The notes beneath the pieces are model-generated. The model did no database searches and was not told the origin of the DNA. It worked only from the letters and a program-made list of their open reading frames with translations. Made by a program: the position numbers and the translations under genes. Below, piece after piece: positions 9,308-58,919 of a stretch of 64,000 nt of DNA. The stretch covers positions 131,116 to 195,115 of the forward strand of contig CAVXSF010000009.1 of the NCBI GenBank assembly GCA_963764345.1, in the 5' to 3' direction. Numbering within the stretch: position 1 is the first letter of the stretch; each line of letters opens with the position of its first letter. The stretch comes from an uncultured Bacteroidales bacterium. GTDB lineage: Bacteria > Bacteroidota > Bacteroidia > Bacteroidales > GCA-2748055.

Positions 9308-9551
9308 GGGGAGTTAGGGATTGAGGGATTGAGGGATTGAGGGATTGAGGGATTGAGGGAAAGAGGAAAGGAGGAATGATGGTGTTTGTAGAGGCGCAAT
9401 TAGGAGATCTGGAGGAATCGAGATTAATTTCGCAAAAACGAATTGAGGGATTGAGGGATTCAGGGAATAGGGATTAATCGATTGACGTGCAAAACTGAAA
9501 TCTGTGCCTAATCTGTTCGTAATTGTCCTAATCTGTGAAATCTGTGGTGAA
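9308..9551 (+). repeat. G-rich mosaic repeat array R1, the shortest member of the five-array family
   Basis: The left end is GGGGAGTTAGGGA, followed by 5x GGGATTGA (9317-9356). A degenerate middle follows. The right end is TTCGTAATTGTCCTAATCTGTGAAATCTGTGGTGAA. Confidence 0.85.
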
Positions 9552-9560
9552 TCTTCTTCT

Positions 9561-10085
9561 TCACTGCTCCTCCCTCAGCATCACATCCACCACCTCCCCG
9601 ATATAAAACCGGTGAAAATCCTGCTTCGGATAATGACGTCTGCTGATTTTCGGATCAATGAAACTGCCGGACTTCAGGTCGTCGGCATACAATTTCCTGC
9701 ATTCCAGGATCAGTCGTGCCTGTTCGTAACCGATATTACCCGCCCTGGTAGCAAAAGGCTTCAGACCGGTTTCCCTCATCTTGTCATAGTCCCGTCCCGA
9801 CTTCGAACCACAAAAATTAAGGATCTTCCGGTATTCTTCCGTAAAAAAGGACAGGGTAAAATACGCCGACTCTTCAGCAAAACCGAAGGTATGGCGCTGC
9901 GGCCTGATATAACAAACTGCGACGGGAAGGTTCCATAAAACACCCATGCCTCCCCAGCTCGCCGTCATGGTATTAAAGGAAGTCAGCCCGCCGGCAGTAA
10001 TAAGCATCCAGTCATCCCCGATAAGCTTGAAAACATTGCCCGGCATGTGCTGCGGACTGATATGTGTAAATACTTCATTCATCAT
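9561..10085 (-). CDS. Flavin reductase-like domain protein
   Basis: This 174-aa ORF carries NTMTASWGGMGVLWN...CYIRPQRHT, which is typical of the Bacteroidota flavin reductase family. Confidence 0.7.
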   Translation of the reverse strand: MMNEVFTHISPQHMPGNVFKLIGDDWMLITAGGLTSFNTMTASWGGMGVLWNLPVAVCYIRPQRHTFGFAEESAYFTLSFFTEEYRKILNFCGSKSGRDYDKMRETGLKPFATRAGNIGYEQARLILECRKLYADDLKSGSFIDPKISRRHYPKQDFHRFYIGEVVDVMLREEQ

Positions 10086-10259
10086 GTATCCAAATTAACC
10101 AGTTTAAAATTAAAACGATAAATTTACAATTTTGTAAGACATATTATATATTTGTTATCTTCGTCACGTAATAATAACAAGCTCCGCCCTGTTCTTTTGC
10201 CCTGGCTTCCTGTGAATTAACGTCAGGCCGGGATATTTTGAGAGCCTAATTCATGACCT

Positions 10260-11273
10260 ATGAAAGAAGCCTTAGAGACACTCGACAAAATTCATCTCAA
10301 TTTCTCCCCTCAGGGACTTTTTGTCCTTAACCTTACCCTGGCCTTTATCATGTTCGGCGTAGCTCTGGAAATCAAGCCGGAACATTTCAAACGGGTGTTT
10401 CTGAATCCGAAATCAACGATCGTAGGATTTGTCTCCCAGTTTCTTTTTCTGCCCGCGTTGACGTTCATACTGATCATAATCTTCAGCCGTTTTATCACGC
10501 CTACCATTGCGTTGGGGATGATCCTGGTTGCAGCCTGCCCGGGTGGAAACATCTCCAACTTCATCTCTTCCCTGGCCAAAGGCAACGTGGCCTTGTCAGT
10601 CAGCCTGACAGCCGTTGCAACCCTGTCGGCGATCATCCTTACCCCGCTCAACTTTGCCCTGTGGGGTAAACTGTATATCCTGTTCTGGAATGAAAAAGCA
10701 CAAAGCCTTCTCCAGCCTCTTACCATCGATGCTTTTGAAATGTTCAAAACCGTTTTCATCCTTCTCGGCATACCTCTGCTCCTTGGCATGGGATTCAATC
10801 ATAAATTCCCAAAAACCACGCTTAGGATCGTAAAACCTCTCAAAAAGATATCCATCCTGCTCTTTATGGCCATCGTTGTCCTGGCTTTTGCTAAAAACTA
10901 TAATTACTTTATCCAGTATATCTCATGGATTTTTATCATTGTCCTGATCCATAACTCCCTTGCCCTTACCACAGGTTACACTGCAGCATCGGCCTTCAAA
11001 CTGAACCGGACCGACCGGCGCACCATTTCCATCGAAACGGGAATACAGAATTCAGGGCTCGCCCTTGTGCTGCTCTTCAACCCCAATGTATTCCCGGAAA
11101 CGATTATCGTCAACGGTTCGGTGAAACCCCTGGAAATCGGAGGGATGGCTTTTATTGCCGCATGGTGGGGAATATGGCATATCCTGGCGGGACTTACCCT
11201 TGCCGGATTTTGGTCGGTCATACCGGCGGAAGAAAAATTTTCACTCAGAAGATTATTTCATAAGAACAGTTAA
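10260..11273 (+). CDS. Bile acid:sodium symporter (BASS) family transporter
   Basis: This 337-aa polytopic membrane protein carries the motif ACPGGNISN. Confidence 0.8.
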   Translation: MKEALETLDKIHLNFSPQGLFVLNLTLAFIMFGVALEIKPEHFKRVFLNPKSTIVGFVSQFLFLPALTFILIIIFSRFITPTIALGMILVAACPGGNISNFISSLAKGNVALSVSLTAVATLSAIILTPLNFALWGKLYILFWNEKAQSLLQPLTIDAFEMFKTVFILLGIPLLLGMGFNHKFPKTTLRIVKPLKKISILLFMAIVVLAFAKNYNYFIQYISWIFIIVLIHNSLALTTGYTAASAFKLNRTDRRTISIETGIQNSGLALVLLFNPNVFPETIIVNGSVKPLEIGGMAFIAAWWGIWHILAGLTLAGFWSVIPAEEKFSLRRLFHKNS

Positions 11274-11278
11274 GGTAC

Positions 11279-12682
11279 ATGAATCGAAAAGAGGAAACAA
11301 TCCATAAGTATAACCTTTTTTACAGGATTTTAAAGAGTTATGAAAGGTTCGTCTTTAAAAGGTTTTACAGGCACTTTCAGGTCATCGACCAAAAAAACAT
11401 TCCCTTCAATGAGCAATATATTCTGACACCAAATCATCAGAATGCTCTCATGGATGCCCTGGCAATACTGAACTCCTGCGGCACAGATGTGGTATTCATG
11501 GCCCGGGCCGATATCTTCCACAAAAAAAGGCAGGCGAAACTTCTCCGGTTTTTTAAAATTCTCCCTATCTACCGCATCAGGGATGGTGCCGGTGAACTGT
11601 CGAAGAACGAGGAGATTTTTGATTCAGCCATTACCATCCTGAGAGATCATATTCCTGTAGGCATGATGCCCGAAGGCAATCATGGCGACAAACGAAGGCT
11701 GCGTCCCCTCGTAAAGGGAACAATGCGTATTGCCCTCAGGACCCAGGAGAAATTAGGAAAAGAACGGGGCGTGAAAATCGTTCCTGTAGGGTTGGATTAT
11801 GAACATTACCAGAAATTCTTCCAGGACCTCCTTATTATTTACGGGCAGCCTGTCGAGGTCTCGGAATTTTACGAATCTTATCTCGAAAATCCTGCAAGGG
11901 CTCAGAATGAACTGCGTGAAAGGCTTTCTGCTGAGATGAAAAAGGTCATTATCCATATCGAAAATGAAGAACTCTATGATATGTATCAGAACCTCAGGGA
12001 GATCTACAATAAGCGGATGCGCAGCAAAGTGGGTATTCTTGGGAAATCTCATTATGAGAGATTCAGGGCTGACAAACAGATGATCCGGATTCTCGACTGC
12101 AAATTCGAATCTGATCCGGAATCACTCAGACTGTTATCCACCAAGGTGAACAGCTATGTCGAAGACCTGAAGGAGCTGAATATCCGTAACTGGATTTTCG
12201 AGCGTTCGGGCTTCACCACCAAAAAACTTATCTATAAACGGTTCGGACTCCTGTTAACCTCGCCCTTATACTTTTATGGCTACCTCAATAACTACCTGCC
12301 TTACCGGCTTCCGCTCCGGCCGTTGAAGAATGTTAAAGACCCGCAGTTTCATTCCTCGTTCAAGTTTGTGCTGGCCATGATCCTCTTCCCGGTTTTCTAT
12401 GCCCTTCAAACCACTATCGTAGCACTGCTCACCGGACCTGCCTGGATCGCCTGGGCTTACCTCCTGAGCCTTCCGGCTACCGGCTATTTTGCACTGTTCT
12501 GGTCGATATGGTACAAAAGATGGCGGGCCGGACTGAAATACAGGCGGATGAAAAAGAGCCGTCATGAGAAGATCCTGAGTCTCGAAAGGAAGTACAAAGA
12601 AATTATGGAAACGATGGACCACATCGTTAATGAGTATCCCGGCAGATTCGGCGAGAAGGATAAAAAACACGAGTATGTCTGA
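11279..12682 (+). CDS. PlsC-family (1-acyl-sn-glycerol-3-phosphate-type) acyltransferase with a C-terminal membrane extension
   Basis: It has an HX4D box in TPNHQNALMDA and a second block MMPEGNHG. Hydrophobic segments lie near residues 320-400. Confidence 0.75.
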   Translation: MNRKEETIHKYNLFYRILKSYERFVFKRFYRHFQVIDQKNIPFNEQYILTPNHQNALMDALAILNSCGTDVVFMARADIFHKKRQAKLLRFFKILPIYRIRDGAGELSKNEEIFDSAITILRDHIPVGMMPEGNHGDKRRLRPLVKGTMRIALRTQEKLGKERGVKIVPVGLDYEHYQKFFQDLLIIYGQPVEVSEFYESYLENPARAQNELRERLSAEMKKVIIHIENEELYDMYQNLREIYNKRMRSKVGILGKSHYERFRADKQMIRILDCKFESDPESLRLLSTKVNSYVEDLKELNIRNWIFERSGFTTKKLIYKRFGLLLTSPLYFYGYLNNYLPYRLPLRPLKNVKDPQFHSSFKFVLAMILFPVFYALQTTIVALLTGPAWIAWAYLLSLPATGYFALFWSIWYKRWRAGLKYRRMKKSRHEKILSLERKYKEIMETMDHIVNEYPGRFGEKDKKHEYV

Positions 12683-13481
12683 GCTGCATTTTTTTGAAGA
12701 TAAAATCGTATGGATAACCGGCGCTTCCTCCGGGATTGGGGAAACCCTGGCAAAAAGGCTGGCGCCACTGGGATGCAGACTGATTCTCTCGGCCCGCCGC
12801 CCTGATGAACTGGAAAGGGTCAGGGCCGGGTGCGGCGAAGTGAAACACGGGATCATCCTCGTCCCCTTTGACCTGTCGTCCCCGGAGGAATGTGAAAAAG
12901 CAGCCGATGAAGTGTTAGCAGGCTTCGGAACCGTGGATTTCCTCTTTAACAACGGCGGAATCTCACAGCGGACCTCCGTTCTGGATACCAGTATAGACAT
13001 GGACCGGAAGATCATGGAAGTGAACTATTTTTCGGGTATCATTCTCACCAAAAAACTTCTGCCGGCCATGATTGAACATGGCGGCGGACATATCACTGTT
13101 ACCAGCAGTATCTCGGGACTCTTCGGCTTCCCTCTGAGAACGGCCTACTGTGCCTCCAAACATGCGGTGAACGGCTTTTACGAAGCCGTATGGACTGAGA
13201 TGCACGACAAAGGGATCCGGACTACGGTTATCTGTCCGGGACGGATCCGGACCAACATCTCCTTTCATGCCCTCGACAAGGGAGGCGTCCCGCACGGGGT
13301 AATGGATAAGGCCCAGGAAGAGGGACTCAGCCCGGAAAAATGTGTGAACGCCATGCTGAAAGGTGTAAGAAGAAATAAAAGAATGGTTCTCATCGGACGT
13401 AAAGAACTTATCCCTGCTTATCTGAAACGGTTTATCCCTTCGCTTTTCTACTGGCTGATTATCAAAATAAAGCCCACCTGA
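12675..13481 (+). CDS. Short-chain dehydrogenase/reductase (SDR)
   Basis: I chose ATG 12675 (MSELHFF), which overlaps the upstream stop by 8 nt. The cofactor motif is ITGASSGIGE and the catalytic motif is YCASKHA. Confidence 0.9.
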   Translation: MSELHFFEDKIVWITGASSGIGETLAKRLAPLGCRLILSARRPDELERVRAGCGEVKHGIILVPFDLSSPEECEKAADEVLAGFGTVDFLFNNGGISQRTSVLDTSIDMDRKIMEVNYFSGIILTKKLLPAMIEHGGGHITVTSSISGLFGFPLRTAYCASKHAVNGFYEAVWTEMHDKGIRTTVICPGRIRTNISFHALDKGGVPHGVMDKAQEEGLSPEKCVNAMLKGVRRNKRMVLIGRKELIPAYLKRFIPSLFYWLIIKIKPT

Positions 13482-13536
13482 GATCCGTTTTGTACAATAA
13501 TTATTAATTTCGCATCGAATAAACGGAGAGAGTATC

Positions 13537-14625
13537 ATGAAAGAGAAAATTATCAGCGGGATCCAGCAGATAGGGATAGGTGTGGCGAATGTGAAGGAAG
13601 CCTGGAAATGGTATAAGGATAATTTTGGTATGGACATCCGGATTTTCGAAGATGCTGCCATGGCTGAACTAATGCTCCCCTATACCGGTGGGAAACCCCG
13701 CATGCGGCATGCTGCCCTGGCCCTCAACCTTATGGGCGGCGGCGGTTTTGAGATCTGGCAGTATACCGAACGAACCCCTGTCGCACCGGTAACTGAGGTG
13801 AAAGCCGGTGATCTGGGGATCTTCGCTGCCAAGATAAAAAGCAGGGACGTCAAAGCCACCTTTAAATATTTCAAAAACAAAGGACTTAATGTCAATGGTC
13901 TTACACGTGATCCTCAGGGACGTGAACATTTCTTCATCCAGGATCCTTTCAATAACATCTTCGAGATCGTCGACAGCCAGTCATGGTTCAGGCTCGACCG
14001 GCGAAAATTCACCGGTGCTGCTGCCGGAGCGGTGATCGGCGTTAGTGACATCGATACCTCCAGGAAAGTATATTCCAGCATTCTCGGGTATGATGAAGTC
14101 ATCTACGACCGGGAAGGCACCTTTGAAGATCTTGGCCCCCTGAATGGCGGTAATAACCGGTTCAGACGCGTCCTCCTGAAACACAGCAAAGCCAGGCTCG
14201 GCGGATTTTCAAGGCTGTTCGGACCGAGCGAGATCGAACTGCTGCAGGTTACCGACCGCAAGCCTGAAAAAATCTTCAGGGACCGCTACTGGGGCGACCT
14301 GGGTTTTATCCACCTTTGTTACGACATCATCGGCATGAAAGCCCTTAGGAAAGAATGCTATGAAAAAGGATTCCACTTTACCGTCGACAGCGATGTTGAC
14401 CCCAAAGGTAGCAGTTTTGACATGGGTGAAGCAGCCGGACATTTCGCCTATATCGAAGATCCCGATGGCACCCTGATCGAATTCGTTGAAACCCACAAGA
14501 TCCCTATCCTGAAAAAGCTGGGCTGGTATCTCGACCTTCAGAAACGCAACCCGGAAAAACCATTGCCGAACTGGATACTCAAAGCATTGAAATATAGCCG
14601 GGTAAAGGATAAACATTTCAGGTAG
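13537..14625 (+). CDS. VOC (glyoxalase/bleomycin-resistance/dioxygenase) superfamily protein with tandem domains
   Basis: This 362-aa ORF has two repeated VOC-like halves (GIQQIGIGVANVKEAWKWY... and AVIGVSDIDTSRKVY...). Confidence 0.65.
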   Translation: MKEKIISGIQQIGIGVANVKEAWKWYKDNFGMDIRIFEDAAMAELMLPYTGGKPRMRHAALALNLMGGGGFEIWQYTERTPVAPVTEVKAGDLGIFAAKIKSRDVKATFKYFKNKGLNVNGLTRDPQGREHFFIQDPFNNIFEIVDSQSWFRLDRRKFTGAAAGAVIGVSDIDTSRKVYSSILGYDEVIYDREGTFEDLGPLNGGNNRFRRVLLKHSKARLGGFSRLFGPSEIELLQVTDRKPEKIFRDRYWGDLGFIHLCYDIIGMKALRKECYEKGFHFTVDSDVDPKGSSFDMGEAAGHFAYIEDPDGTLIEFVETHKIPILKKLGWYLDLQKRNPEKPLPNWILKALKYSRVKDKHFR

Positions 14626-14983
14626 AAGAAGACGCCTCAAAAGTCAGTTTCACCAAAATTCTTCTTTACAATCCGACTTTAAAGACACCCTCTTACATAG
14701 AAAACATTACAAAGACTCTTCGCTTCACTCAGGATTTCCCCCTTTCCTCCAACAGCAAATACAACACGGGCACCACCAGAAGTGTCAGTATGACTGAACC
14801 AGCAGGCCTCCGATGACGGTTCGCATGGGAGCCCGGAGTGTGTCTCCTCGTAATGTCACGGGACAACAATACGCAAACATTAGTCAGGCTGGTGAAATGA
14901 CGGGGGATGGAAGGACCTGCCGGGGTCGGAAAATGCTCGTCTTTTATTATCTTTACCTTCTGATCCGCAAAAACCGTTTTGTC

Positions 14984-15598
14984 ATGCTTAAAGATCTCTT
15001 TCTTAAAAACCGCAGCTACCGGAGATTTCACCAGGGTGTGCCCGTACCGGCAGCCGACCTCATGGATATGATCGACAATGCCCGTCTGGCCGCTTCCGGC
15101 AGGAATGTCCAGCCCCTGAAGTACATCCTGGTAAACGATCCCGCCGTATGTTCAAAGGTGTTTCCCTGCCTGGCCTGGGCCGGGTATCTCAAAGACTGGG
15201 ACGGTCCTGCCGACGGTGAACGGCCGTCGGCCTACATTGTGCAGCTGCACGACACCACCCTCGCCCCCGGGTATTTCTGCGATGACGGTATCGCTGCCCA
15301 GAGCATTCTTCTCACCGCCGTGGAAAAAAATTTCGGCGGATGCATCATTGCCACCGTTAAACGCGACGAATTGTCCGCCCTTCTCAACATCCCGTCCCAC
15401 CTGAAAATCCTGCATGTCTTTGCCCTTGGAAAACCAAAGGAGACTGTCATCGTCGAAGATGTGAAAAACAACGACATCCGCTACTGGCGGGATGAAAACC
15501 AGGTGCACCATGTGCCGAAGCGATCACTGGAGGAGCTGGTGGTGGGGATGGGAGGAGTTAGGGAAAGGCAAAAGGCGAAAGGCGAAAGGCAAAAGTGA
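14984..15598 (+). CDS. Nitroreductase family protein; the last ~15 codons are supplied by repeat array R2
   Basis: I chose ATG 14984 (MLKDLFLKNRSYRRF, a typical nitroreductase N-terminus) rather than the track start at 14813. The tail GGVRERQKAKGERQK is read from the GGAGTTAGGG and GAAAGGC repeat tracts. Confidence 0.85.
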   Translation: MLKDLFLKNRSYRRFHQGVPVPAADLMDMIDNARLAASGRNVQPLKYILVNDPAVCSKVFPCLAWAGYLKDWDGPADGERPSAYIVQLHDTTLAPGYFCDDGIAAQSILLTAVEKNFGGCIIATVKRDELSALLNIPSHLKILHVFALGKPKETVIVEDVKNNDIRYWRDENQVHHVPKRSLEELVVGMGGVRERQKAKGERQK

Positions 15599-17004
15599 GG
15601 GATTGAGTCAGGAAATTAGAGGTTAGGGAGGCCGAATGAACCGTGTAAACGGGAATTCCGATTGTTAAATATCAATATCAAAAACGTAGAGACGTGATGC
15701 ATCATGTCTTCGTGGGGAATTGAATATTGAATATCGAATATCGAATATTGAATATCGAATATTGAATATTGAATTTGGAGACGGGTGAAAATAGACAAAA
15801 ACCGGTCAACGAATTCGTAGACGCACGCCTTGGCGTGCATACGATAAATGCCGTTTTCATTTGGAAGAAAAAAGGCGAAAGGCAAAAGTGAGGGATTGAG
15901 TCAGGAAATTAGAGGTCAGAGGTTAGGGAGGCCGAATGAACCGTGTAAACGGGAATTCCGATTGTTAAATATCAATATCAAAAACGTAGAGACGTGATGC
16001 ATCATGTCTTCGTGGGGAATTGAATATCGAATATCGAATGTCGAATATTGAATGTCGAATATCGAATATCGAATATTGAATATTGAATTTGGAGACGGGT
16101 GAAAATAGACAAAAACCGGTCAACGAATTCGTAGACGCACGCCTTGGCGTGCATACGATAAATGCCGTTTTCATTTGGAAGAAAAAAGGCGAAAGGCAAA
16201 AGTGAGGGATTGAGTCAGGAAATTAGAGGTCAGAGGTTAGGGAGGCCGAATGAACCGTGTAAACGGGAATTCCGATTGTTAAATATCAATATCAAAAACG
16301 TAGAGACGTGATGCATCATGTCTTCGTGGGGAATTGAATATTGAATATCGAATATCGAATATTGAATATCGAATATTGAATATTGAATTTGGAGACGGGT
16401 GAAAATAGACAAAAACCGGTCAACGAATTCGTAGACGCACGCCTTGGCGTGCATACGATAAATGCCGTTTTCATTTGGAAGAAAAAAGGCGAAAGGCAAA
16501 AGTGAGGGATTGAGTCAGGAAATTAGAGGTCAGAGGTTAGGGAGGCCGAATGAACCGTGTAAACGGGAATTCCGATTGTTAAATATCAATATCAAAAACG
16601 TAGAGACGTGATGCATCATGTCTTCGTGGGGAATTGAATATCGAATATCGAATTCGAATCTTTCGAATATTGAATATCCGAATATTGAATATCGAATTTG
16701 CGTAGATCTGTGGTGAAAATAGACAAAATCGGTCAACTAATTCGTAGACACACGCCTTGGCGTGCATAACCGATAAATACCGTTTTCATTTGGACGAAGA
16801 AAGGCGAAAGGCAAAAGTTAGGATTGAGTTAGGAAATTAGAGGTGAGAGGTTAGGGAGGCCGAATGAACCGTGTAAACGGGAATTCCGATTGTTAAATAT
16901 CAATATCAAAAACGTGGAGACGTGATGCGTCATGTCTTTGGAAAAATCGGATAATCTTTCCTAAAATCTGTGCTAATCTGTGTAATCTGTGTAATCTGTG
17001 GTGA
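15551..17004 (+). repeat. G-rich mosaic repeat array R2: about 5 tandem copies of a ~300-bp higher-order unit
   Basis: The anchor AAAAGTGAGGGATTGAG recurs at 15591, 15884, 16198 and 16498, with a degenerate copy at 16813 (spacings 293, 314, 300 and 315 bp). Each unit contains a GAAAGGC tract, a 20-nt imperfect palindrome AGACGTGATGCATCATGTCT, a variable GAATATC/GAATATT tract, GGAGACGGG, and the palindrome GCACGCCTTGGCGTGC. The array ends in (TAATCTGTG)n GTGGTGA. Confidence 0.9.
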
Positions 17005-17135
17005 TTCCCTCTCCTGCCCCAATATCTTTATCGTTATCAACACTTTGTGGATAAACTCGTTTTCCCGGGATAGGAATATTACGTACATTTAATAAATGGG
17101 AATATTCTTCCCGTGCAACCTTTTTTTTCAAAGCC

Positions 17136-17717
17136 TTGTCTACCATGCGGAGCGAATCTATGAAAGATGAAAAGGAATTACTCAGACGCTGCACACGTAA
17201 CGACAGGACCGCCCAGAAGATCCTGTACGACCGTTTTGCGCCGGCGATGCTGGGTATCTGCGTGAGGTTCACCGGCAACCGGGCGGAAGCCGAGGACATC
17301 TTGCAGGACGGGTTCGTGAAGGTCTTTTTAAAACTGAAGGATTTCGAAGGCAGGAGTTCCCTCTACGGCTGGATACGTAAGGTGATGATCAACACGGCCA
17401 TCACCCATTACCACCGCAACCTGAAGCACCGCTACCATTACGACATCGACGATTTCAGGGAGCGGGACACCGTGGAAGCCGATTGGCAGGATGCCGGTTT
17501 CACCGCAGATGAGCTGCAGGGGGTGATCGCTTCGCTGCCCCCTGGCTACCGGATGGTTTTCAGCCTCTACGCAGTGGAAGGCTACAAGCACCGGGAGATC
17601 GCCAAAGAGCTGGGCATCGACGTCAACACCTCGAAATCGCAGTACTCCAGGGCCAGGAAGCTCATCCAGAGCCGGCTGGCCAGTATGGACAAAGTAGCGA
17701 AAAAGAAAAATGGTTAA
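17136..17717 (+). CDS. ECF-type RNA polymerase sigma-70 factor
   Basis: Region 2 reads RAEAEDILQDGFVKVF...YGWIRKVMINTAI. Region 4 reads PPGYRMVFSLYAVEGYKHREIAKELGIDVNTSKSQYSRARKLI. The start could instead be ATG 17145 or 17160. Confidence 0.9.
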   Translation: MSTMRSESMKDEKELLRRCTRNDRTAQKILYDRFAPAMLGICVRFTGNRAEAEDILQDGFVKVFLKLKDFEGRSSLYGWIRKVMINTAITHYHRNLKHRYHYDIDDFRERDTVEADWQDAGFTADELQGVIASLPPGYRMVFSLYAVEGYKHREIAKELGIDVNTSKSQYSRARKLIQSRLASMDKVAKKKNG

Positions 17718-18102
17718 GAAAAACAACGATATTGAAAAGCTGTTCCGTAAAGGTCTGAAGGACCAGGAGATCCTTCCCTCAGCCCGTGTATGGTCCGGCG
17801 TGAAACGGCAACTGTTCCGGAAGATGTTCATGCAGTTCAGTCCCGGGCGTTTCAATATCTTGTATGCCGCCCTCCTGGCAGCGGCTGTCATCACCCTGGC
17901 TTTGTTGTATGCCAGGCCGGAACAGAAACATCCCAACACCATGCCTGAAAACATCCGGCAGGAACAGCCGGTACTTCAGGCACCTGAAACCGCAGACTCG
18001 TTGGCCCCCGATACGCTGAAAGTTCCCGCTCGCGGAAGTCACCGGCACTCAGCCCGGACCTTCAAAACCGGCTTTAAACACCGAAAAAACCACACCGCTT
18101 AA
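17710..18102 (+). CDS. Sigma-coupled single-pass membrane protein (anti-sigma-like); the 3' part is probably out of frame
   Basis: Its ATG overlaps the sigma stop by 8 nt. It has a short cytoplasmic N-terminus and one TM segment (FNILYAALLAAAVITLALLY). After ...APDTLKVP the translation becomes an Arg/His-rich run that looks like an out-of-frame reading. Confidence 0.55.
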   Translation: MVKKNNDIEKLFRKGLKDQEILPSARVWSGVKRQLFRKMFMQFSPGRFNILYAALLAAAVITLALLYARPEQKHPNTMPENIRQEQPVLQAPETADSLAPDTLKVPARGSHRHSARTFKTGFKHRKNHTA

Positions 18103-18178
18103 AACAAGGCAGGTCCCTGCCACGGCCTCCTCCACAGCCAGTAAGCCGGAATCCGGGACCATATCCGGAGGCACATCC

Positions 18179-19063
18179 ATGGCAACCGGAGAACCACCTG
18201 CCGCACAGGCATCAGAGGAGAACGATACAACCGGCACCGCCACCCTTGACCTTCTGCCCCTGGCCATCTTCGAGCCTTCGGTGAGAGAGGGTTGTGCCCC
18301 GCTGACCGTAACCTTTGCCAACCTCTCCCAAAACAGCCATGCCTGGCAGTGGAGTTTTGGCGACGGGCAGGAGGCGGATCAGAAAGAACCCGTCCATCGT
18401 TTTGAAAATCCAGGCGAATACTTCGTGATCCTGACGGCTGAAGGCGACAATCACACCGTCTCCACCCTCACCCTCACCATCGTGGTGCATCCGCGGCCCG
18501 AAGCCAGCTTCAACATAGAGGCAGCAGGCATGCCCGGCAACGGGAAGCCGGTGTACTTTTATAACCTCAGCACCGGCGCTGAAAGTTACGAGTGGCATTT
18601 CGGCGACGGCGGTGTCTCACACGACCGGGAGCCGGTATGGAACTACGACAAGGCCGGCAGGTATACCATCACCCTGATCGCCCGCAGCGCCTCCGGCTGC
18701 ACCGATACCATGGTGATGGAGAACGCCTTTGACCAGGGCGGGCCGGAGATCCGGTTCCCCAATGCCTTCAGCCCCGACATGAACGGGCCAACAGGTGGAT
18801 ATTACCATGCCGGCGACAGTAACCATGACGTCTTTCATCCGTATACAGGCGAAGTCCCGGAAACGTACGAATTAAAGATCTACAACCGCACCGGGAACCT
18901 GGTCTTTGAAAGTCATGATTTCCACCTTGGATGGGACGGCTATTACCAGGGCAGGCTTCAGCCACGCGGTGTGTATATATGGAAGGCCAGGGGACGTTTT
19001 GCCGGCGGAAAAACCTTTGAAGAAATGGGCGACGTAACGATGATATATAATGGAGGGAGTTAG
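18179..19063 (+). CDS. 2x PKD domain protein with a T9SS type-B (gliding-motility-associated) C-terminal domain; the real N-terminus is probably upstream
   Basis: PKD motifs are FANLSQNSHAWQWSFGDG and YNLSTGAESYEWHFGDGG. The CTD reads FPNAFSPDMNG...LKIYNRTGNLVFES...GWDGYYQG...GVYIWKARG. There is no signal peptide after M18179, and the same frame is open back to 18020. Confidence 0.8.
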   Translation: MATGEPPAAQASEENDTTGTATLDLLPLAIFEPSVREGCAPLTVTFANLSQNSHAWQWSFGDGQEADQKEPVHRFENPGEYFVILTAEGDNHTVSTLTLTIVVHPRPEASFNIEAAGMPGNGKPVYFYNLSTGAESYEWHFGDGGVSHDREPVWNYDKAGRYTITLIARSASGCTDTMVMENAFDQGGPEIRFPNAFSPDMNGPTGGYYHAGDSNHDVFHPYTGEVPETYELKIYNRTGNLVFESHDFHLGWDGYYQGRLQPRGVYIWKARGRFAGGKTFEEMGDVTMIYNGGS

Positions 19064-19797
19064 AGATTAGAGATTGGGGATTAGAGATTGGGGATTGGGG
19101 AGTTAGAGATTAGAGATTGGGGATTAGAGATTGGGGATTGGGGAGTTAGAGATTAGAGATTGGGGATTAGAGATTGGGGATTGGGGAGTTAGAGATTAGA
19201 GATTGGGGATTAGAGATTGGGGATTGGGGAGTTAGAGATTAGAGATTGGGGATTAGAGATTGGGGATTGGGGAGTTAGAGATTAGAGAGTTAGAGATTAG
19301 AGATTGGGGAGTTAGGAGGAGTACTGAATTAACATCTTCATAACTTCATAACCTCATAACCTCATAACTTCATAACCTCATAACCTCATAACTCTTTAGA
19401 AAAGTTAGGGAGTTAGGGATTGAGGGAGTTAGGGATTGAGTGGGAAGAAAGGTGTGAAAGGTGAAAGGAGGCGGATAAATGATGGTTTTTATTTCGTAGA
19501 GACGAGCAATTATGCACGTCTCCTGGAAAATACGGAATTAATCATTCGTGCGAAAAACAAAAGGTGAAAAGTGAAAGGTGAAAGTGAAGGAAAGAGAATA
19601 TTGAATATCGAATATTGAATATCGAATATCGAATAATGAATTCGGAGACGGGAGAAGGACTTAGTAAATACTGCGGCGGACTGGGTTTCCCCTTTAGGGG
19701 ACTAAGGGGTGAGCGTAGGGAGGAAGGGGAGACGGTCGTAGAGACGCCATGTATGGCGTCTCTACTACAAAACAACCCCGAATTTCCTAATATCATC
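19054..19797 (+). repeat. G-rich mosaic repeat array R3
   Basis: A 43-bp higher-order unit (AGAGATT AGAGATT GGGGATT AGAGATT GGGGATT GGGGAGTT) occurs about 5.5 times, with anchors at 19059, 19101, 19144, 19187, 19230 and 19273. It is followed by 7x TCATAACY, GGGAGTTA/GGGATTGA tracts, GAAAGGT and GAATATC tracts, and GGAGACGGG. Next come the GGGTTTCCCCTTTAGGGG module, a perfect palindrome at 19738-19765, and a CGAATTTCCTAATATC right end. Confidence 0.9.
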
Positions 19798-22700
19798 AAC
19801 CGCCAACCGGCATCATAAATAATTACGGGCAGGTTTTAATCCCGTCACGTAAAAGGAGAACGAACACAAGAGATATCGAATTATATCGAAGAAGACAAGG
19901 CCAGCCTTGTCCCAACGAAAAACAAAATATCCCCGCCCCAAAGGGGAAACCAAACCTGAGATAATGATACGGACGAACCTTATAAAAAGACGATTCCTCC
20001 CGGGACTGCTCCTGCTGCTCCTGGGAAGCTTCAATCTCTTTTCCCAGACACAGATCGACAGTGCGAAATATATCACCGTAAACCAGGATGTGATAACTGT
20101 ATACCTGAACGAGCCGGTGACCCTGACCACTGCTGCGGGCTGGTCTGTCAATGTGGGAGGTACCGTACATACCTATAATTCAAATACCCTCATACGTCCG
20201 AATATCCAGTACCTCTCGGGTAGTGGGACCAATACCATTAATTTCAGACTCTTATTCGTTTTTCCTAAAACAAATATTGAACCGCCCGATGTGGCTGCCG
20301 GAGTTACTGTTTCATATAACGGTAGTGGAAATACAAAAAATTTATTGAGTGTTTCAATGGGTGCAGACGGGCCTGTTACCGCAGTGAACGACCGGATTAT
20401 TACCTGTGATATGCTGACTTCAGTACAGTCAATTGGTGTGGAAAATAGTACAGGACCATGTCAACCAGTTTCTGTACAAATGAAAATTTCATGGAATTGG
20501 TCAATGGTCGCTAGAAATAGTACTCATTTTAATACAAATGGAATACAAGCAAGAACATCATGGAATGATCTGGCAAATACAAAAAATAACTACAATATGA
20601 CTGAAGATCCAATAAATTCAGGCAAATATGTAGTTGTAACTCCACTTTTCTCCTATTCTATTGAAAATACTTGTACCTTTAATTTAGCCGTATATCCAAT
20701 ACATCTTCATAAACCATCAGATCTACAACAAGCAAATCTATATGTGTTATGGGGAACTACTCAAGCAAGATTATATCTTCCAGCATATCGCTTAGATAAC
20801 CAACAACTAGGCGGTAACTTCCAAATCACACCAGCTACTGGCTCTAACCCAACACTTATTTGTCGTGGCAGTGATATTGACGGTTTCATTTTTCACGATG
20901 CCACCGAATTCAACTGTAACTCTGGCGTAGAACCCGACCGTCCCAACGAAGGCACCCGTTGGACGCAGTTCGTATATGGTACCCACTCAGGTGCCGGTAT
21001 CCCCAATGTATATATCGACGTTCACGGCACCATGGTCCAGATCACCGACAATGACGGTAATTTTATCCCCGGGCCCTTTACCGTCGATCCCAATACCGGG
21101 GCTACCGTGGCACCCTATGACACCGCCAGCGGCTTCTACGAAGGGCCGGTGGAAGAGATCCCGGAACCGGCCACAGGTCCTACCGCCCAGACTTTCCCCA
21201 TATACCACACCGGCAACTATTACAACGACCAGGTGAATGACGTGTTCGAGGTGACCCTCCGAAACTGGGGGCCGTGTAACAAATACATCGATTTTGAAGC
21301 CCCTATTGAAACCACTTCGGAATTGAGACTTATCGAAGCACCTCCCCCGCCCAACCCCGGAACGCACGATCATTGTTTCGGCTCTGTGCCGGGAACGATT
21401 TCGGTCACCGGTACCGGCGGGGATATCGACTGGTATTCCGACTCAACGCTTATCACCCTTATCAAAAACAACAGCAGCAGTTATACCCACGGTGAAACAG
21501 CGGTGGGCTCATATTATTACTGGGTAAACGAGACCGGCGGCAACGGCTGCGTCGGCCCCGACACCATGGTCACCCTCACCATCAACCCCCTCCCCCTGAA
21601 CAACCAGCCCGTCTCCGACCCGGTGATCTGTGCCGGCGAAACGGCTACCATCACCATCGGAACTCGGAGCCGGGCGTATCCTACCAGCTGCGTAACGACG
21701 CCAACGATAATCCCGTGGGCGCAGCACAGACGGGCACCGGCGGGACACTGAACTTCAGTGTCAGCCCCGGCTCCACCATTACCTATAATATCCTGGCTAC
21801 CAATATACCACAGGCTGCGACAATGAGCTCACAGACAAGGCCGTGGTTACCGTTCATCCCCTGGCCAACATCAGCAGCCAGCCGCCGAACCGGACCAGGT
21901 GCGAAGGCAACCAGCACTACCTTCTCCGTTACCGCCTCCGGTCCTATCGTCAGCTACAGGTGGTACGTAGACCCGAACACCGGCACCTTCTCGGCCATTA
22001 GCAACGGCGGCGTTTATACCGGCGCCACCACGGCCACCCTGCATGTCAACAACATCCCGGCGTCCATGAACAACTACAAGTACCGCGTGGAGATCATCAC
22101 CACCGGACCGTGCTCCAAAATCTCGAACGCCGGCACCCTGCGTGTCAACCCCGCTGCCACTCGACAAGAACGTGATCGCCGACGATTATTACCTCTGCTA
22201 CGGCACCTCCACCAGCATCGTGGTGCAGTCGTCGGAAAACGGCATCGCATACGATTTCCGCATCGGCAGCGACGTGAAGAACACCCAGACCGGCAACAAC
22301 GCCAACCTCGACTACCCCACCGGCAACCTCATGGCCGACACCACCTATAACGTCAATGCCCGTAATACCGTCACCGGCTGTTCACGCGTTCTCACCGACA
22401 AGCCCAGGGTAAATGTCAATCCCGATCTCACAGCCAATTTGTCCGTGGCACTCCCCGACATCTGCAGGACACGCCCATCGACCTGCCTTCAGTAACCGTC
22501 ACCGGCGGCTCCGGTCAATATTCCTACCTCTGGACCGGCACCGACGTCTATACAGCAGCAACAGCCAGAACCCGGCATCTTTCATGCCCTCTTCCGCCGG
22601 CGGACACAGCTATACCGTCACCGTCACCGACGAGGGCTTCCTCACCGAATCGGCCGGCACACGCACCTGTACGGCATCCGACAACACCAGCTTCACGGTC

Positions 22701-41621: not shown

Positions 41622-41629
41622 ATATCCGT

Positions 41630-46710: not shown

Positions 46711-46972
46711 ACGGACAATTGGTACGAAGCCAAAGATAAATGAAAAAATACGGATTTGTGAAGAATCGGAGGGAAATAATGGGAAGAGGGATAGAGGGAA
46801 AAAAGTATTCAGTTACCCGCAGCCCGCACCTGATCATGATAAAAAGGAAATGATATCTGAAAGTCTCCCACCGGAGTTTCCGTGCTCCGAAATCATGACG
46901 GCAGGGCTGTTTACAAGGTAGAAGGAATGGCATTTATCCCATCCGATCTGTTTCGTGTCTGCCTCCTCACAC

Positions 46973-53244: not shown

Positions 53245-53290
53245 CCGTTCAACACCCTGATCATAATTACAAACCTTAAAACTTAAATAC

Positions 53291-53923: not shown

Positions 53924-53931
53924 TCACCGGC

Positions 53932-55769: not shown

Positions 55770-55937
55770 AAACCAGGGGTGTTAAGTTTGAATGACAAGG
55801 ACGAATGTATGAAAATCCACTTGTACGCACAAGCAGAAACCGGATAAATCGCATCCTCAAACCATTCACAAATGAAAGAGCCGCAGCAGCACCAGGCAAA
55901 CAATAAATGCCCGGTATTCAGCTTACGGATGACAAAA

Positions 55938-58076
55938 TTATTTCGCGTTGAAATTATGGATGCCCTGATCGAGATAGGCTACATAAGCAGAAATATTGAG
56001 TTCTTTGCCAATGGGATCAGCCAGCAGCTTGCCACTGGCATCGGTAAGGGCATACAATGGCGTAGTGAGGGTTCCGAAATGTACAATCTCGAAGTATTTG
56101 TTAATATCACCGATGTTCTTCAGTACTTTCCCGTCGGGTGTTGTCACCCATTCCTCTTCCGGCAGCCTGGTCTTATCGTCAGTGTAAAGCGATATGACCA
56201 CATAATCTTCCTTAAGTCTTTTCAATACCTGGGGATCGGACCAAACCTGGCTTTCCATCTGCTTGCAGTTACTGCAGGTGTGACCGGTGAAATCGAGGAA
56301 AATGGGTTTGTTCCTGGATGTGGCGCATTTCACACCATCGGCATAATCAAAATACCCCTGGATGCCATAGGGAAATTCGAACAGATCGTTGTATTTTCCG
56401 GGTCCGCAATAGGTATCATCATTATCCTGGCTGGCAGGCGTCATGGCCGTTGATCCTATGTGAAAGCTCTGTTCCGATTTTGGGGGTATCAGGGCAGCGA
56501 TCAGTTTCAGGTCATTACCGAAGATCCCTGTGAAAAGGTAGATACTGAACACGAAAAAGATGATCGCCAGGAGGAGTCTGGGTACAGAGATAAATGGTAA
56601 ATCGCTGTCATGTGAAAGTTTCAGTTTGCCTAGAAGGTAAAAACCGATCATCAGTGAAATGACAAACCAGATGGCCAGGTATACTTCCCTGCTGAAGATA
56701 TTCAGATGATATGCCTGATCCATCGCACTGAGAAATTTCATACCGAAGGCCAGCATGAAAAAGCCAAGAATGACCTTTACCGAATTCAGCCATCCTCCTG
56801 ATCTTGGCAGGTTTCCCAACATTGAGGGAAAAATGGCCAGGAAGGTGAACGGGAGTGCGAAGGCAAGTGAAAAGAAGAACATCCCCATGATAGGCTTCAG
56901 CGCAGCTCCTCCTGAAGCGGCTTCGATCAGTAATGTTCCGACGATGGGACCTGTACAGGAAAAGGACACCAGAACGGTGGTCAGACCCATGAAGAACGGT
57001 CCGATAAATCCGCCCCGGTCAGCCTGCCTGTCGGCCCGGTTCACCATGCCCGACGGAAGGACGATCTCGAACATACCCAGGAAGGAAGCTGCAAATACCA
57101 TAAACAGGGCGAAGAATATCAGGTTGGGGATCCAGTTAGTGCTGAGGGTGTTTCCAATATTGGCATCGAGGCCCGTCAGGGATACCAGCACGCCGAGGCC
57201 GGTATAGATTACGATGATTGAAAGTCCGAATACAAGGCCCTTCATAACAGCCGGTCCTTTCTTTTCACTTCCCCGCATAAAGAAGGAAACTGTCATCGGG
57301 ATCATGGGAAAAACACAGGGCGTAAGTACGCCTGCCAGACCTGCAAGAAAGGATATGAGCATAAAAAGCCAGAAAGATTTTTGTTCCTCCTTTATAGGGT
57401 TGGCAACGATGTTTTGCTGTGTGGAAGGCGAAGCTTCCTGTATCGAAGCCTGGCTTTCTTCTGCTTTTGACATTGTGCCGGCTGACAGATTCGTATCCTT
57501 TTCGCCAACCATACCAGCAGCTCCGGCAGATTCCGTTTCATGTTCCGGCCCGGACATTTTCGTGCCGGTTACTACTTTAGCCGCTGCAGAAGGATTACCA
57601 GGAAGAGAAAATGAGAAGTCCTTCTGGAAAGGCGGCAGGCAGGTCTCGTCGTTGCAGCACTGGTATTCGACACTCCCTTTCAGCGTAACAGGACTTGCTG
57701 AAAGTACTTTTACGGTCTGGTGAAACTGTGCTTTTTTGTAATATGCTCCTACATTAAACTGAAAACCTTCATCGAATTTTACCACCGGTTTGATATCTTC
57801 TTTGATATCACTGAAGAGCTTCACGGAAGGGTTTGGTGTAATACTGATCGTGGTAGGTATAGGTCCGGTTTGTTCCAGTTGGATGGCATACATATGCCAG
57901 GGACTCTGGATATCGGCTTTAAATATGAGGTCGTAAATGCCGTCACCTTTTTTCACTGTCGAATAGTCCCAGGTAACGGGATCCTGTGCCTGCATGTTAA
58001 ACTGAGAAAAGGCCGGCATGCAAAGGATAGCCAGGAGCGCGATCAGGAAACCTAACTTTTTCATCATTTCTGACAT
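55938..58076 (-). CDS. dsbD: Thiol:disulfide interchange protein DsbD (DipZ) family
   Basis: The ORF is 712 aa. The N-terminal periplasmic domain carries YQCCNDETCLPP. The CcdA-like membrane core carries LTPCVFPMIP. The C-terminal thioredoxin fold carries FTGHTCSNCKQME. Confidence 0.85.
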   Translation of the reverse strand: MSEMMKKLGFLIALLAILCMPAFSQFNMQAQDPVTWDYSTVKKGDGIYDLIFKADIQSPWHMYAIQLEQTGPIPTTISITPNPSVKLFSDIKEDIKPVVKFDEGFQFNVGAYYKKAQFHQTVKVLSASPVTLKGSVEYQCCNDETCLPPFQKDFSFSLPGNPSAAAKVVTGTKMSGPEHETESAGAAGMVGEKDTNLSAGTMSKAEESQASIQEASPSTQQNIVANPIKEEQKSFWLFMLISFLAGLAGVLTPCVFPMIPMTVSFFMRGSEKKGPAVMKGLVFGLSIIVIYTGLGVLVSLTGLDANIGNTLSTNWIPNLIFFALFMVFAASFLGMFEIVLPSGMVNRADRQADRGGFIGPFFMGLTTVLVSFSCTGPIVGTLLIEAASGGAALKPIMGMFFFSLAFALPFTFLAIFPSMLGNLPRSGGWLNSVKVILGFFMLAFGMKFLSAMDQAYHLNIFSREVYLAIWFVISLMIGFYLLGKLKLSHDSDLPFISVPRLLLAIIFFVFSIYLFTGIFGNDLKLIAALIPPKSEQSFHIGSTAMTPASQDNDDTYCGPGKYNDLFEFPYGIQGYFDYADGVKCATSRNKPIFLDFTGHTCSNCKQMESQVWSDPQVLKRLKEDYVVISLYTDDKTRLPEEEWVTTPDGKVLKNIGDINKYFEIVHFGTLTTPLYALTDASGKLLADPIGKELNISAYVAYLDQGIHNFNAK

Positions 58077-58089
58077 TTTATTGAAGGGA

Positions 58090-58097
58090 CAAAGATA
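58090..58097 (-). promoter_or_regulatory. Candidate -7 promoter box (TAnnTTTG) for dsbD
   Basis: TATCTTTG on the minus strand lies 13 nt upstream of the dsbD ATG (58076). It is squeezed between the gene and the left end of array R5 (58109). This is a motif match only. Confidence 0.3.
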
Positions 58098-58108
58098 TAA
58101 AAATATAT

Positions 58109-58919
58109 GGAGACGGGTCAGGGAAAGGCGAAAGGTGAAAGTTAGGGAGTTAGGGAGTTAGGGATTGAGGGAGTTAGGGAGTTAGGGATTGAGGGAGTTA
58201 GGGATTTAGGATAGTTAGGGATTGAGGGATTAGGGATTGAGGGATTAGGGATTAGGGATTGAGGGATTGAGGGATTGAGGGAGTTAGGGATTGAGGGATT
58301 GAGGGATTGAGGGATTGAGGGATTTAGTAAATGCTACGGTGGGCTGGGTTTCCCCTTTAAGGGGATTAAGGGGTGAGCGTGGGGAAAAAGATGCGGGAAA
58401 AAGAATAGAGGGAAGAGAGGTGGGAGTTAGGGATTGAGGGATTGAGGGATTGAGGGATTAGTGAAGATGGGTTGAGGATGGACTGAGATTTCCCCTTTAG
58501 GGGATTAGAGGGGTGAGCGTGGGGAAAAAGATGCGGGAAAGGGAAGGATAGAGGGAGAGAGTTAGGGAGTTAGGGATTGAGGGATTGAGGGATTGAGGGA
58601 TTGAGGGATTGAGGGATTGAGGGATTTAGTAAATGCTACGGTGGGCTGGGTTTCCCCTTTAAGGGGATTAAGGGGTGAGCGTGGGGAAAAAGATGCGGGA
58701 AAAAGAATAGAGGGAAGAGAGGTGGGAGTTAGGGAGTTAGGGAGTTAGGGAGTTAGGGATTGAGGGAGTTAGGGATTTAGTAAATGCTACGGCGGGCTGA
58801 GTTTCCCCTTTAGGGGACTAAGGGGTGAGCGTAGGGAGTGAGAGAGTTCGTGGTTGAGTTGTTCGTAATTCCTAATCTTTAATAATCTGTCCCGTATAGT
58901 TATCGGGATCTGTGGTGAA
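58109..58919 (+). repeat. G-rich mosaic repeat array R5
   Basis: It starts GGAGACGGGTCAGGGAAAGGCGAAAGGTGAAAGTTAGGGAGTTAGGG. It has long GGGATTGA / GGGAGTTA / GGGATTA tracts. There are four copies of TTTCCCCTTTA(A)GGGGATTAAGGGGTGAGCGTGGGG, each followed by a GAAAAAGATGCGGGAAA.. module. The right end is GTTCGTAATTCCTAATC...ATCTGTGGTGAA. Confidence 0.9.

Follow-up and report, generated by a model that had tools for sequence, protein, structure and literature searches.

Composite repeat arrays in a Bacteroidales genome: a polar, modular, non-coding family of G-quadruplex-prone repeats and REP-type hairpins

Introduction

What kind of element are the five G-rich repeat arrays, here termed R1 to R5, that lie among the genes of a 64-kb stretch of the genome of an uncultured Bacteroidales bacterium (assembly GCA_963764345.1, contig CAVXSF010000009.1, positions 131,116 to 195,115)? 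The initial annotation of this stretch, which is referred to below in its full length of 64,000 nucleotides as the window, described the arrays as one uniformly oriented family with conserved ends and a variable mosaic interior, and as a family that could not be recognised. The analysis presented here reveals a polar, modular, non-coding family with strain-variable copy number and genome-specific sequence, in which G-quadruplex (G4)-prone repeats are joined with hairpins of the repetitive extragenic palindrome (REP) type. The arrays are a particularly elaborate form of repeat types already known from bacteria rather than a new kind of system, and are best read as closest to repeat clusters resembling bacterial interspersed mosaic elements (BIMEs), BOX elements or BrickBuilt elements. 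R1 to R5 are probably copies of a single lineage-specific, non-coding composite repeat that is built from REP and G4 tracts, has grown by slippage and recombination, and is mainly selfish.

Five arrays with one module order

Direct reading of the sequence, combined with Tandem Repeats Finder (TRF), located the arrays at 9308-9551 (R1), 15551-17004 (R2), 19054-19797 (R3), 36978-38452 (R4) and 58109-58919 (R5), all in the + orientation. Together they span 4,728 bp (7.4% of the window), and none of the 50 rows that TRF returned for the window lies elsewhere. The positions and the coverage of about 7% given in the initial annotation were thus confirmed, and the short units that it named are all present: GGGATTGA/GGGAGTTA, AGAGATT/GGGGATT, GAAAGGC, GAATATY, TCATAACY, GTTGAGTT and TAATCTGTG. 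The higher-order tandem units that it reported for three arrays were likewise recovered, with periods of 314 bp in R2 (4.5 copies), 43 bp in R3 (5.9 copies) and 178 bp in R4 (7.1 copies, or alternatively 363 bp in 3.5 copies), and to these TRF added a period of 135-151 bp (3.8 copies) in R5 that had gone unnoticed.

A module map reveals that R1 to R5 follow a common, colinear order on the + strand. The first part of this order consists of G8 tracts, GAAAGGC, further G8 tracts, a GTAG-footed hairpin where present, GAATATY and GGAGACGGG; the middle is occupied, where filled, by either the module TTTCCCC-loop-GGGGA-N3-AGGGGTGAGCG or a second hairpin; and the end is formed by GTTGAGTT, CGTAATTCCTAATC, 9-mers and GTGGTGA. 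The existence of one colinear order indicates that the arrays are five differently amplified copies of one composite element. Pairs of arrays have between 2 and 30% of their 11-mers in common, always on the same strand and never on the opposite one, which together with the module map bears out the view that the arrays of the window belong to a single family, alike in polarity and in their set of modules.

The modules are strongly concentrated in the arrays and on one strand. The sequence ATCWGTGGTGA occurs five times in the window, each time on the + strand, against an expectation of 0.03, while 13 copies of GGAGACGGG were found where 0.5 would be expected; twelve of them lie in arrays and on the + strand, the remaining one being found on the minus strand at 21608. 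Exact copies of GTAGAGACG are confined to arrays. The C content of the arrays is 6-13%, a strong strand asymmetry, and canonical G4 motifs number 20 on the + strand of the window and none on the - strand. Nineteen of the 20 (G3N1-7 x4, as a sequence motif) lie within R1, R3, R4 and R5, R2 having none; the sole motif outside the arrays is found at 46771-46798 (+), between acyltransferase and LysE genes.

The two ends of the arrays fared less well than the interior. What had been taken for a conserved left end is only the start of a GGGAGTTA/GGGATTGA tract, and R5 opens instead with GGAGACGGG, an internal module elsewhere. At the right end, the 9-mers and GTGGTGA do recur in R1, R2, R4 and R5; R3, however, is without both, and the terminus is not private to this family but an arm of a palindrome that is wide in Bacteroidota, as described below.

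Variation between strains and relatives

The initial annotation proposed that array length be compared between strains, and such a comparison is provided by a separate 415-kb contig (L121) that encodes an RNase G 100% identical to that of the window. Its DNA is 94-97% identical, which places it in the same species as another strain. The spacer between rng and dsbD, in which R5 lies, measures 1,540 bp in this strain versus 877 bp in the window, with identical flanks and termini, and the R5 locus contains seven higher-order units versus four. Relatives with RNase G proteins that are 90% and 82% identical have rng-dsbD spacers of 335 bp and 83 bp, respectively, and no array. The locus L122, which is without an array at this spacer, carries an unrelated 235-bp tandem repeat (4.6 copies) at 20487-21558, at the end of the locus.

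Three syntenic relatives (L147, L148 and L149), with acyltransferases 84-85% identical, carry arrays in the same spacers but built from other units. In L147 these are (AAATGGTTTG)x20 and a composite in which ATTTGGTG, GAAGAG and TCAAACCAxx tracts surround a 9-mer hairpin; in L149, (GTTAGGAA)x5.5 stands beside the DCC1 start. L148 has a 4.7-kb non-coding block (13352-18037, without called genes, between glyoxalase and Fe-S oxidoreductase genes) composed of GGGTACGT, GTGATGGG and CTCAAACAATC tracts, a 21-mer beginning GGGGTAGAGATG and a 167-bp unit in 4.7 copies. The 21-bp unit, GGGGTAGAGATG-N9, resembles plasmid iterons in its length. With the exception of the 9-mer tail in L147, these arrays have essentially no 11-mers in common with those of the window. 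The spacers of two of these relatives also hold a conserved two-hairpin segment (13570-13690 in L147, 7300-7390 in L149), the first hairpin of which is TCCCCGGAGGGGA in L147 and GCCGGAGGC in L149, and the second stem of which changes from CCATGG/CCATGG in L149 to CCACGG/CCGTGG in L147, a compensatory double change.

The window's own modules, in the same order, were found in the metagenome-assembled genome (MAG) MFD02416, with no other DNA similarity detectable in the loci fetched. The minimal element of this genome (L060) spans 120 bp and consists of seven copies of GGGAGTTA, a linker, CGTAATTCCTAATC, 9-mers and GTGGTGA. Together with the syntenic relatives, this suggests that module sets become uniform within each genome and give way to others from genome to genome, with some spacers staying occupied; by analogy, this is the pattern known for REP and BIME families.

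Uniform orientation, which the window alone had suggested as a property of the family, does not extend to the relatives. In L147 one composite is present in opposite orientations at sites 6 kb apart, each within a divergent spacer; two tails face each other 60 bp apart in L004; and on the 1.9-Mb contig CAVYRO010000002 the orientations of the 9-mer motif interleave among the matches listed.

REP-type hairpins and the right terminus

GTAG-footed GTAGAGACG hairpins are present in R1 to R3, whereas R4 and R5 are without such a palindrome. Folded as DNA, these hairpins score z = -2.2 to -4.9, and a perfect palindrome of the double-foot REP type in R3, GTAGAGACGCCAT-GT-ATGGCGTCTCTAC (19737-19766), reaches -13.8 kcal/mol and z = -6.65. 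All hairpin copies within the window are extragenic and lie inside arrays.

Palindromes of comparable make-up have been described beside genes for REP-associated tyrosine transposases (RAYTs). These include GTAG-CACAGATT-AGT-AATCTGTG-CTAC in Ignavibacterium album (subclass 2.7), GTAG-CACAGGATT-AATCCTGTG-CTAC in Chloroflexus aggregans, and, in subclass 2.6, both GCACGGATT-GCA-AATCCGCGC, carrying CACGGATT/AATCCG, in Flavobacterium johnsoniae and CCGTAGAG...CGTCTCTACGG in Pedobacter saltans (Quentin et al., 2018; PMC6006769, Table S1). Subclass 2.6 is specific to Bacteroidetes and has "atypical secondary structures" at its flanks, while "double-foot" GTAG...CTAC REPs accompany subclass 2.4 of Cyanobacteria and Bacteroidetes (PMC6006769). 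Judged against these published RAYT-flanking and double-foot REPs, the GTAGAGACG hairpins of the window look like REP-type units.

The likeness to REPs and BIMEs extends to several features. Firstly, the arrays contain short palindromes that are extragenic and carry a GT[AG]G foot, among them the double-foot form, and these palindromes are reiterated in tandem clusters together with flanking DNA. Secondly, their sequence is species-specific at recurrent spacers, and depletion between divergent genes is seen. Thirdly, the AATCTGTG/CACAGATT core and GTAGAG..CTCTAC stems occur in lists of RAYT-adjacent REPs (PMC6006769, Table S1; PMC3733652). In contrast to REPs and BIMEs, most of the length of the arrays is made up of 7-9-nt simple-sequence tracts, and the tail in the window consists of tandem 9-mers from a single arm, whereas a REP is a hairpin of 20-40 bp.

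The distribution of this tail sequence was examined in a one-genome-per-species scan with AATCWGTGNAATCWGTGGTGA, which matched at least 120 genome stretches; the following counts refer to the matches listed. These are overwhelmingly from Bacteroidota, and include the genera Bacteroides, Phocaeicola, Mediterranea, Prevotella, Anaerophaga, Cyclobacterium and Haliscomenobacter, the families Prolixibacteraceae, Saprospiraceae and Lewinellaceae, and MAGs labelled Chitinophaga and Flavobacterium. Some further matches are from MAGs of Chloroflexota, Planctomycetota, Acidobacteriota and Verrucomicrobiota. The 9-mer palindrome AATCTGTG was seen in non-Bacteroidota MAGs at L007, L008, L038, L064, L065, L078, L081, L083, L085 and L091, often paired with CACGGATT arms, and could have arrived there by horizontal spread, through a shared RAYT lineage or by binning contamination. 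The motif is intergenic in 143 of 152 occurrences and has an inverted partner, as a long perfect palindrome, in about half of them; 64 occurrences lie between co-directional genes, 34 between convergent ones and only 12, a depletion, between divergent ones.

In its usual form the motif belongs to a long palindrome, TCACCACAGATT-ACACAGATT-N-ACACAGATT, loop, AATCTGTG-NN-AATCTGTG-T-AATCTGTGGTGA, and DNA folds of such 9-mer palindromes score z = -10.7 and -14.9. The right terminus in the window, (AATCTGTG-N)n-GTGGTGA, corresponds to one arm of this palindrome, and on sequence grounds looks like one arm of a REP-like palindrome. As in the window, the motif stands beside other tandem tracts of 6-11 nt at L003, L004, L012, L095, L115 and the loci of MFD05684, the last of which has at least 10 copies. 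Viral contigs yielded 12 matches to the 9-mer motif and none to the G8 tract, and this rarity and absence indicate that the element is not phage-borne. A literature text search with the literal motif strings returned no match, and where a REPtron-like layout was sought between the paired hairpins of L067 and L072, only ordinary operon-sized open reading frames (ORFs) were found.

The 29-nt module TTTCCCC..GGGGA..AGGGGTGAGCG likewise has a distribution of its own. A metagenome scan for TTTCCCC-N2-6-GGGGA-N2-4-AGGGGTGAGCG returned 23 loci, where by our estimate well under one would be expected by chance. At no fewer than eleven of the 23, the module is central to an unrelated element of about 180 bp with inverted-repeat ends; at other loci it adjoins CCCCTAAAGGGG hairpins. 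The 180-bp element (contigs L124, L125, L127, L128, L132, L134, L135, L137, L140, L144 and L146) has imperfect inverted ends, TAGTGTCACTAAGAAAAC.../...GTTTTCTTATNNGCACTA, and three internal AAAACTCA repeats, and gave no Rfam match. Nor did the module itself match Rfam, and the copy in the window folds no better than its shuffles (z = -0.3). Two repeat families thus carry the same 29-nt module.

Comparison with known repeat systems

The claim that conserved ends with a variable interior are unlike known types did not survive comparison, since such an architecture is known in BrickBuilt/MITEPgRS elements (PMC4596501) and in REP/BIME families (PMC3733652). Similarly, the family proved recognisable in its parts, which are of described kinds: G4-forming 7-mer repeats (PMC4692102) and GTAG-footed, REP-like palindromes.

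The G4 component finds its counterpart in two repeats characterised earlier, GGGNATC in Xanthomonas and GGGGA(C/T)T in Nostoc. These are intergenic, mostly located between aligned ORFs, differ greatly in length among close relatives, undergo transcription and form G4 structures in vitro; their authors found no regulatory role and identified no function (Rehm et al., 2015; PMC4692102). The arrays resemble these repeats in having tracts of three to four G every 7-8 nt (GGGGATT itself occurs in R3), in lying near the 5' neighbouring ORF in either orientation (five of five arrays), sometimes over its stop codon, and in a length that varies between relatives, as R5 does with its four units versus seven. 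They differ from them, and from the cyanobacterial short tandemly repeated repetitive (STRR) heptamers, in being mostly octamers, in belonging to another phylum and in showing no preference for four units. Moreover, the tracts of the arrays sit in kilobase mosaics with higher-order periods, other units and REP-like hairpins.

The closest architecture within the same order, Bacteroidales, is that of BrickBuilt/MITEPgRS in Porphyromonas gingivalis. These elements are always intergenic, combine a leader, spacerless tandem repeats of 23 or 41 nt and a tail, vary in repeat number from 1 to about 23 across loci and strains, lack one end in some copies, measure about 0.1-1 kb and often lie beside cargo genes of the type IX secretion system (T9SS) (PMC4596501). 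The arrays have the same layout in that a leader and a tail surround a variable tandem interior in an intergenic, multi-copy element. In contrast, BrickBuilt is built on a single 23-nt unit, its leader and tail are non-repetitive, and it carries terminal inverted repeats of the IS5 type, GAGACCTTTGCA (PMC4596501). The arrays combine many unit types, are not similar to BrickBuilt in sequence and lack inverted termini; their two ends are unrelated and are joined by no inverted repeat, and their flanks show no duplication.

Pneumococcal BOX elements, with the structure boxA-(boxB)n-boxC, have conserved terminal modules and variable internal tandem modules, are intergenic and are co-transcribed with their neighbours. 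The arrays are likewise modular, with conserved ends and a variable tandem interior. BOX elements, however, belong to Firmicutes and comprise three modules of 45-59 nt that form a stable stem-loop, without simple-sequence tracts or G4 potential.

TAACTGA and other heptamer direct repeats have also been reported from intergenic regions of Beggiatoaceae, Cyanobacteria and some Bacteroidetes (MacGregor, 2015; PMC4679880), including spacers of Gramella and Aequorivita in which several heptamer tracts stand side by side and are missing in close relatives. These sets differ from the arrays in their units and in lying mostly directly upstream of start codons, and no conserved ends or higher-order units were described for them (PMC4679880).

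Several further candidates were rejected. The arrays are neither of the CRISPR type nor insertion sequences, as had already been concluded: TRF shows contiguous units and no unique spacers, no cas domain or transposase was found among the Pfam-scanned ORFs of the window, and terminal inverted repeats are absent. DnaA boxes, FtsK-orienting polar sequences (KOPS), a CsrA sponge, telomerase-like repeats and repeats written by a reverse transcriptase were dropped, since either their sequence was not matched or the window encodes no enzyme of the kind required. FopS small RNAs of Bacteroides were considered as well, at the level of titles and abstracts. Rfam and nucleotide searches, which the initial annotation had also proposed, were negative. 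In Rfam, no match reached the gathering score in the window or in 15 loci, and a search of 11 metagenome loci and of 15400-19900 in E-value mode gave nothing real, the sole match with E<1 being to a spurious miRNA model; BLAST of the 314-bp R2 unit against plasmid and phage collections gave no match. Look-ups of identical proteins for the ORFs at 55938-58076, 11279-12682 and 40365-41621, and for P0121, returned no record. No tRNA or tmRNA was found in the window.

Origin, maintenance and alternative explanations

How might a mainly selfish composite repeat of this kind arise and persist? On its purine-rich strand, the composite would be assembled from four sets of parts: G4-prone 7-8-nt tracts (GGGAGTTA/GGGATTGA, GGGGATT); further purine-rich 7-8-nt tracts (GAAAGGC, GAATATC); GTAG-footed palindromes and the CCCC-loop-GGGG module; and a tail of AATCTGTG-N 9-mers running to GTGGTGA. 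The arrays would grow and shrink through slipped-strand mispairing inside tracts and through unequal recombination of one higher-order unit with another. Dispersal and homogenisation within a genome may be due to gene conversion, to a hairpin-recognising single-strand transposase of the RAYT/TnpA-REP type, or to both, as proposed for REP and BIME families; by analogy with these, such a transposase may be what disperses the arrays. The DNA itself would be mainly selfish or near-neutral, tolerated where promoters are undisturbed, with possible side effects on transcripts that read into it: G4 formation in one direction and a C-rich, G-poor RNA suited to Rho in the other.

Several observations weigh against this reading. 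The tail in the window is a single arm without an inverted partner and does not fold into a hairpin, and the hairpin modules run head-to-tail on the + strand within the tandem units instead of alternating as in a BIME. Neither the window nor about 128 kb of loci from relatives (six of 21 kb) showed a RAYT or any other transposase, a weak test given that a genome has only one or two RAYT copies. (A regular expression for the HUH...Y signature of RAYTs found no match in L001-L146 and is not meaningful as a test.) Target-site duplications, terminal inverted repeats and clean empty sites were likewise not found at the arrays, so that their mobility is deduced rather than demonstrated. The source assembly has probable long-read indel errors, evident in a split adhesin gene, and these make fine differences between units, and perhaps unit counts, uncertain. 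Finally, all five arrays have their G-rich end at a distance of 0-60 nt from the ORF on the 5' side, and the same spacers are occupied in several species; this placement rule and this recurrence could reflect a selected function rather than tolerance.

This last point introduces the main rival, a selected polar transcription barrier, which we regard as possible though doubtful. Between co-directional genes, the arrays would then serve as transcriptional insulators or 3'-end elements whose effect depends on orientation. Reading in the G-rich sense would give G4 structures in RNA or non-template DNA together with hairpins, and reading in antisense would yield a long C-rich, G-free RNA ideally suited to Rho loading. 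All five arrays do lie between co-directional ORFs, R2 to R4 following + strand genes and R1 and R5 standing between - strand genes, with the G-rich end at or over a stop codon in the former and upstream of an antisense start in the latter, and such a placement rule has also been reported for G4 repeats in Xanthomonas and Nostoc (PMC4692102). The low C content, the restriction of G4 motifs to one strand and the occupation of the same spacers in related species likewise speak for such a role, as does the finding that the array spacers contain no canonical intrinsic terminators. (Sigma-70 promoter and intrinsic terminator patterns in these spacers are at background level; the promoter tool does not cover Bacteroidota promoters.) An insulator is, however, difficult to reconcile with close relatives that have no array in the rng-dsbD spacer, with an almost two-fold difference in unit number between strains, with relatives' arrays that lie in divergent spacers and in both orientations, and with kilobase lengths far above what termination needs; nor did the authors of the Xanthomonas and Nostoc study find a regulatory role for their repeats (PMC4692102).

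A bolder proposal, which we hold to be unlikely, is that the 9-mer palindrome TCACCACAGATT-ACACAGATT ... AATCTGTG-T-AATCTGTGGTGA marks an undescribed REP-type system, whose half-sites nucleate, in one uncultured Bacteroidales clade, G4-rich satellites of kilobase size that each species rebuilds and that act as polar transcription barriers.

The arrays might instead encode non-coding RNAs expressed from promoters of their own, such as protein sponges in which GGA or UGUG motifs are repeated. High reiteration of short motifs would suit such RNAs, as would the conservation of the 29-nt module in another species and in the unrelated metagenome element, and the compensatory stem change in a relative's module. 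That no Rfam match was obtained at either threshold, that promoter patterns are not in excess, that a C-poor strand allows little Watson-Crick structure (the module being no more stable than shuffles) and that the sequence is replaced wholesale between related species make this improbable. Still harder to sustain is the idea that the arrays are polar chromosome-organising or replication sites comparable to KOPS or Chi, with the G-rich strand tracking replication. It is prompted by the single orientation of the five arrays over 50 kb, whatever the gene direction, and by the strictly same-strand sharing of sequence among them, but an orientation this uniform has a chance probability of p = 0.06, and the opposed composites of L147, the facing tails of L004 and the interleaved orientations on CAVYRO010000002 are at odds with it; the GC skew of the window is too noisy for assigning a replication direction. 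An assembly artefact of low-complexity sequence, which the initial annotation had named as a possible refutation and which the probable indel errors and the homopolymer lengths that differ between units might suggest, is scarcely credible, since R5 recurs with identical unique flanks and the same module order in the independent contig of the other strain, the family recurs in other MAGs and the arrays are spanned by long-read contigs of 0.4-1.9 Mb.

Individual arrays and their neighbours

R1 is a minimal copy, with six copies of GGGATTGA (9309-9356), a degenerate GTAG palindrome (9388-9415), and CGTAATTGTCCTAATC plus 9-mers to GTGGTGA (9498-9550). It lies between the start of a DCC1-like gene (8793-9248, -) and the stop of a flavin reductase gene (9561-10085, -).

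The 314-bp units of R2 (15578-16938) each comprise a GAAAGGC tract, GGGATTGA, a GTAGAGACGTGATGCATCATGTCTTCG hairpin, a GAATATY tract, GGAGACGGG and a GTAGACGCACGCCTTGGCGTGCAT hairpin, and are followed by a tail of four AATCTGTG-N and GTGGTGA (16964-17004). The array is flanked by a nitroreductase ORF (14813-15598, +), whose C-terminal tail and stop codon come from the first 47 nt of R2, and by the start of a gene for an extracytoplasmic function (ECF) sigma factor at 17136. The nitroreductase ORF encodes 261 aa, versus 190-195 aa for the called genes of relatives, and its start codon may also be mis-set.

The first GGGAGTTAG of R3 supplies the TAG stop of the upstream gene. The array starts with the 43-bp units, made of GGGAGTTA and AGAGATT/GGGGATT 7-mers (19055-19310), continues with seven TCATAACY (19338-19393), four GGGAGTTA/GGGATTGA, a GTAG hairpin (19496-19522) and five GAATATY, and then has GGAGACGGG (19644) and the TTTCCCC..GGGGA..AGGGGTGAGCG module (19686-19716), after which the double-foot palindrome follows within the array. 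An isolated, inverted CCCC-loop-GGGG hairpin on the - strand, TCCCCGCCCCAAAGGGGAAACC (19930-19951), is complementary to 19684-19699 of R3 and stands about 15 nt upstream of the likely ATG of an adhesin gene at 19966.

R4 is found directly 3' of the TAG stop (36977) of this adhesin gene and upstream of the start of a PorP/SprF gene at 38658. It opens with GGAGTTAG in 8.4 copies (36980-37046), followed by units of 178-193 bp (37033-38345) that consist of a G8 tract, four GAAAGGC, GAATATC, GGAGACGGG and TTTCCCC..AGGGGTGAGCG; its end is formed by seven to nine GTTGAGTT (38340-38410), CGTAATTCCTAATC (38412) and three TAATCAGTG with GTGGTGA (38421-38451). R5 is flanked by the start of dsbD (58076, -) and the stop of rng (58953, -). 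Its opening GGAGACGGG is joined by two GAAAGGY; four higher-order units, each a G8 tract with TTTCCCC..AGGGGTGAGCG, form its body, and GTTGAGTT, CGTAATTCCTAATC, degenerate 9-mers and GTGGTGA (58912-58918) its end.

Besides ordinary housekeeping genes, the window carries T9SS CHU_C cargo and PorP/SprF, with GldD in the flank. Pfam scans of about 50 of its ORFs found no transposase, reverse transcriptase, HUH or cas domain. The adhesin gene (19907-36977, +; about 17 kb) encodes a giant T9SS adhesin with PKD, Ig_7 and CHU_C domains and has a G+C content of 54-59%, versus about 45-50% for neighbouring genes. It is split in the window into 10 overlapping ORFs in different frames, whereas syntenic relatives have one ORF of 4,869-5,193 aa; the split probably reflects long-read indel errors or a pseudogene.

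Implications

Bacterial genomes are usually compact, yet here some 7% of a 64-kb housekeeping stretch is satellite-like, and a relative devotes 4.7 kb to a single non-coding block. The arrays unite three repeat types that are usually treated apart, namely G4-prone simple repeats, REP-type hairpins and higher-order tandem units, and they turn over completely between related species while their spacers stay occupied. For these reasons they could serve the study of how repeats are seeded, homogenised and tolerated in bacteria, and of the polar barriers that G4- and C-rich tracts may form. In practical terms the arrays are assembly hazards, and they could be used as markers for strain typing. If a REP-type system does nucleate these satellites, and each species rebuilds them as polar transcription barriers, they would be a bacterial counterpart of the rapidly evolving satellites of eukaryotes. 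The most interesting point is what recognises the AATCTGTG 9-mer palindrome, which is widely conserved in Bacteroidota, including gut Bacteroides.

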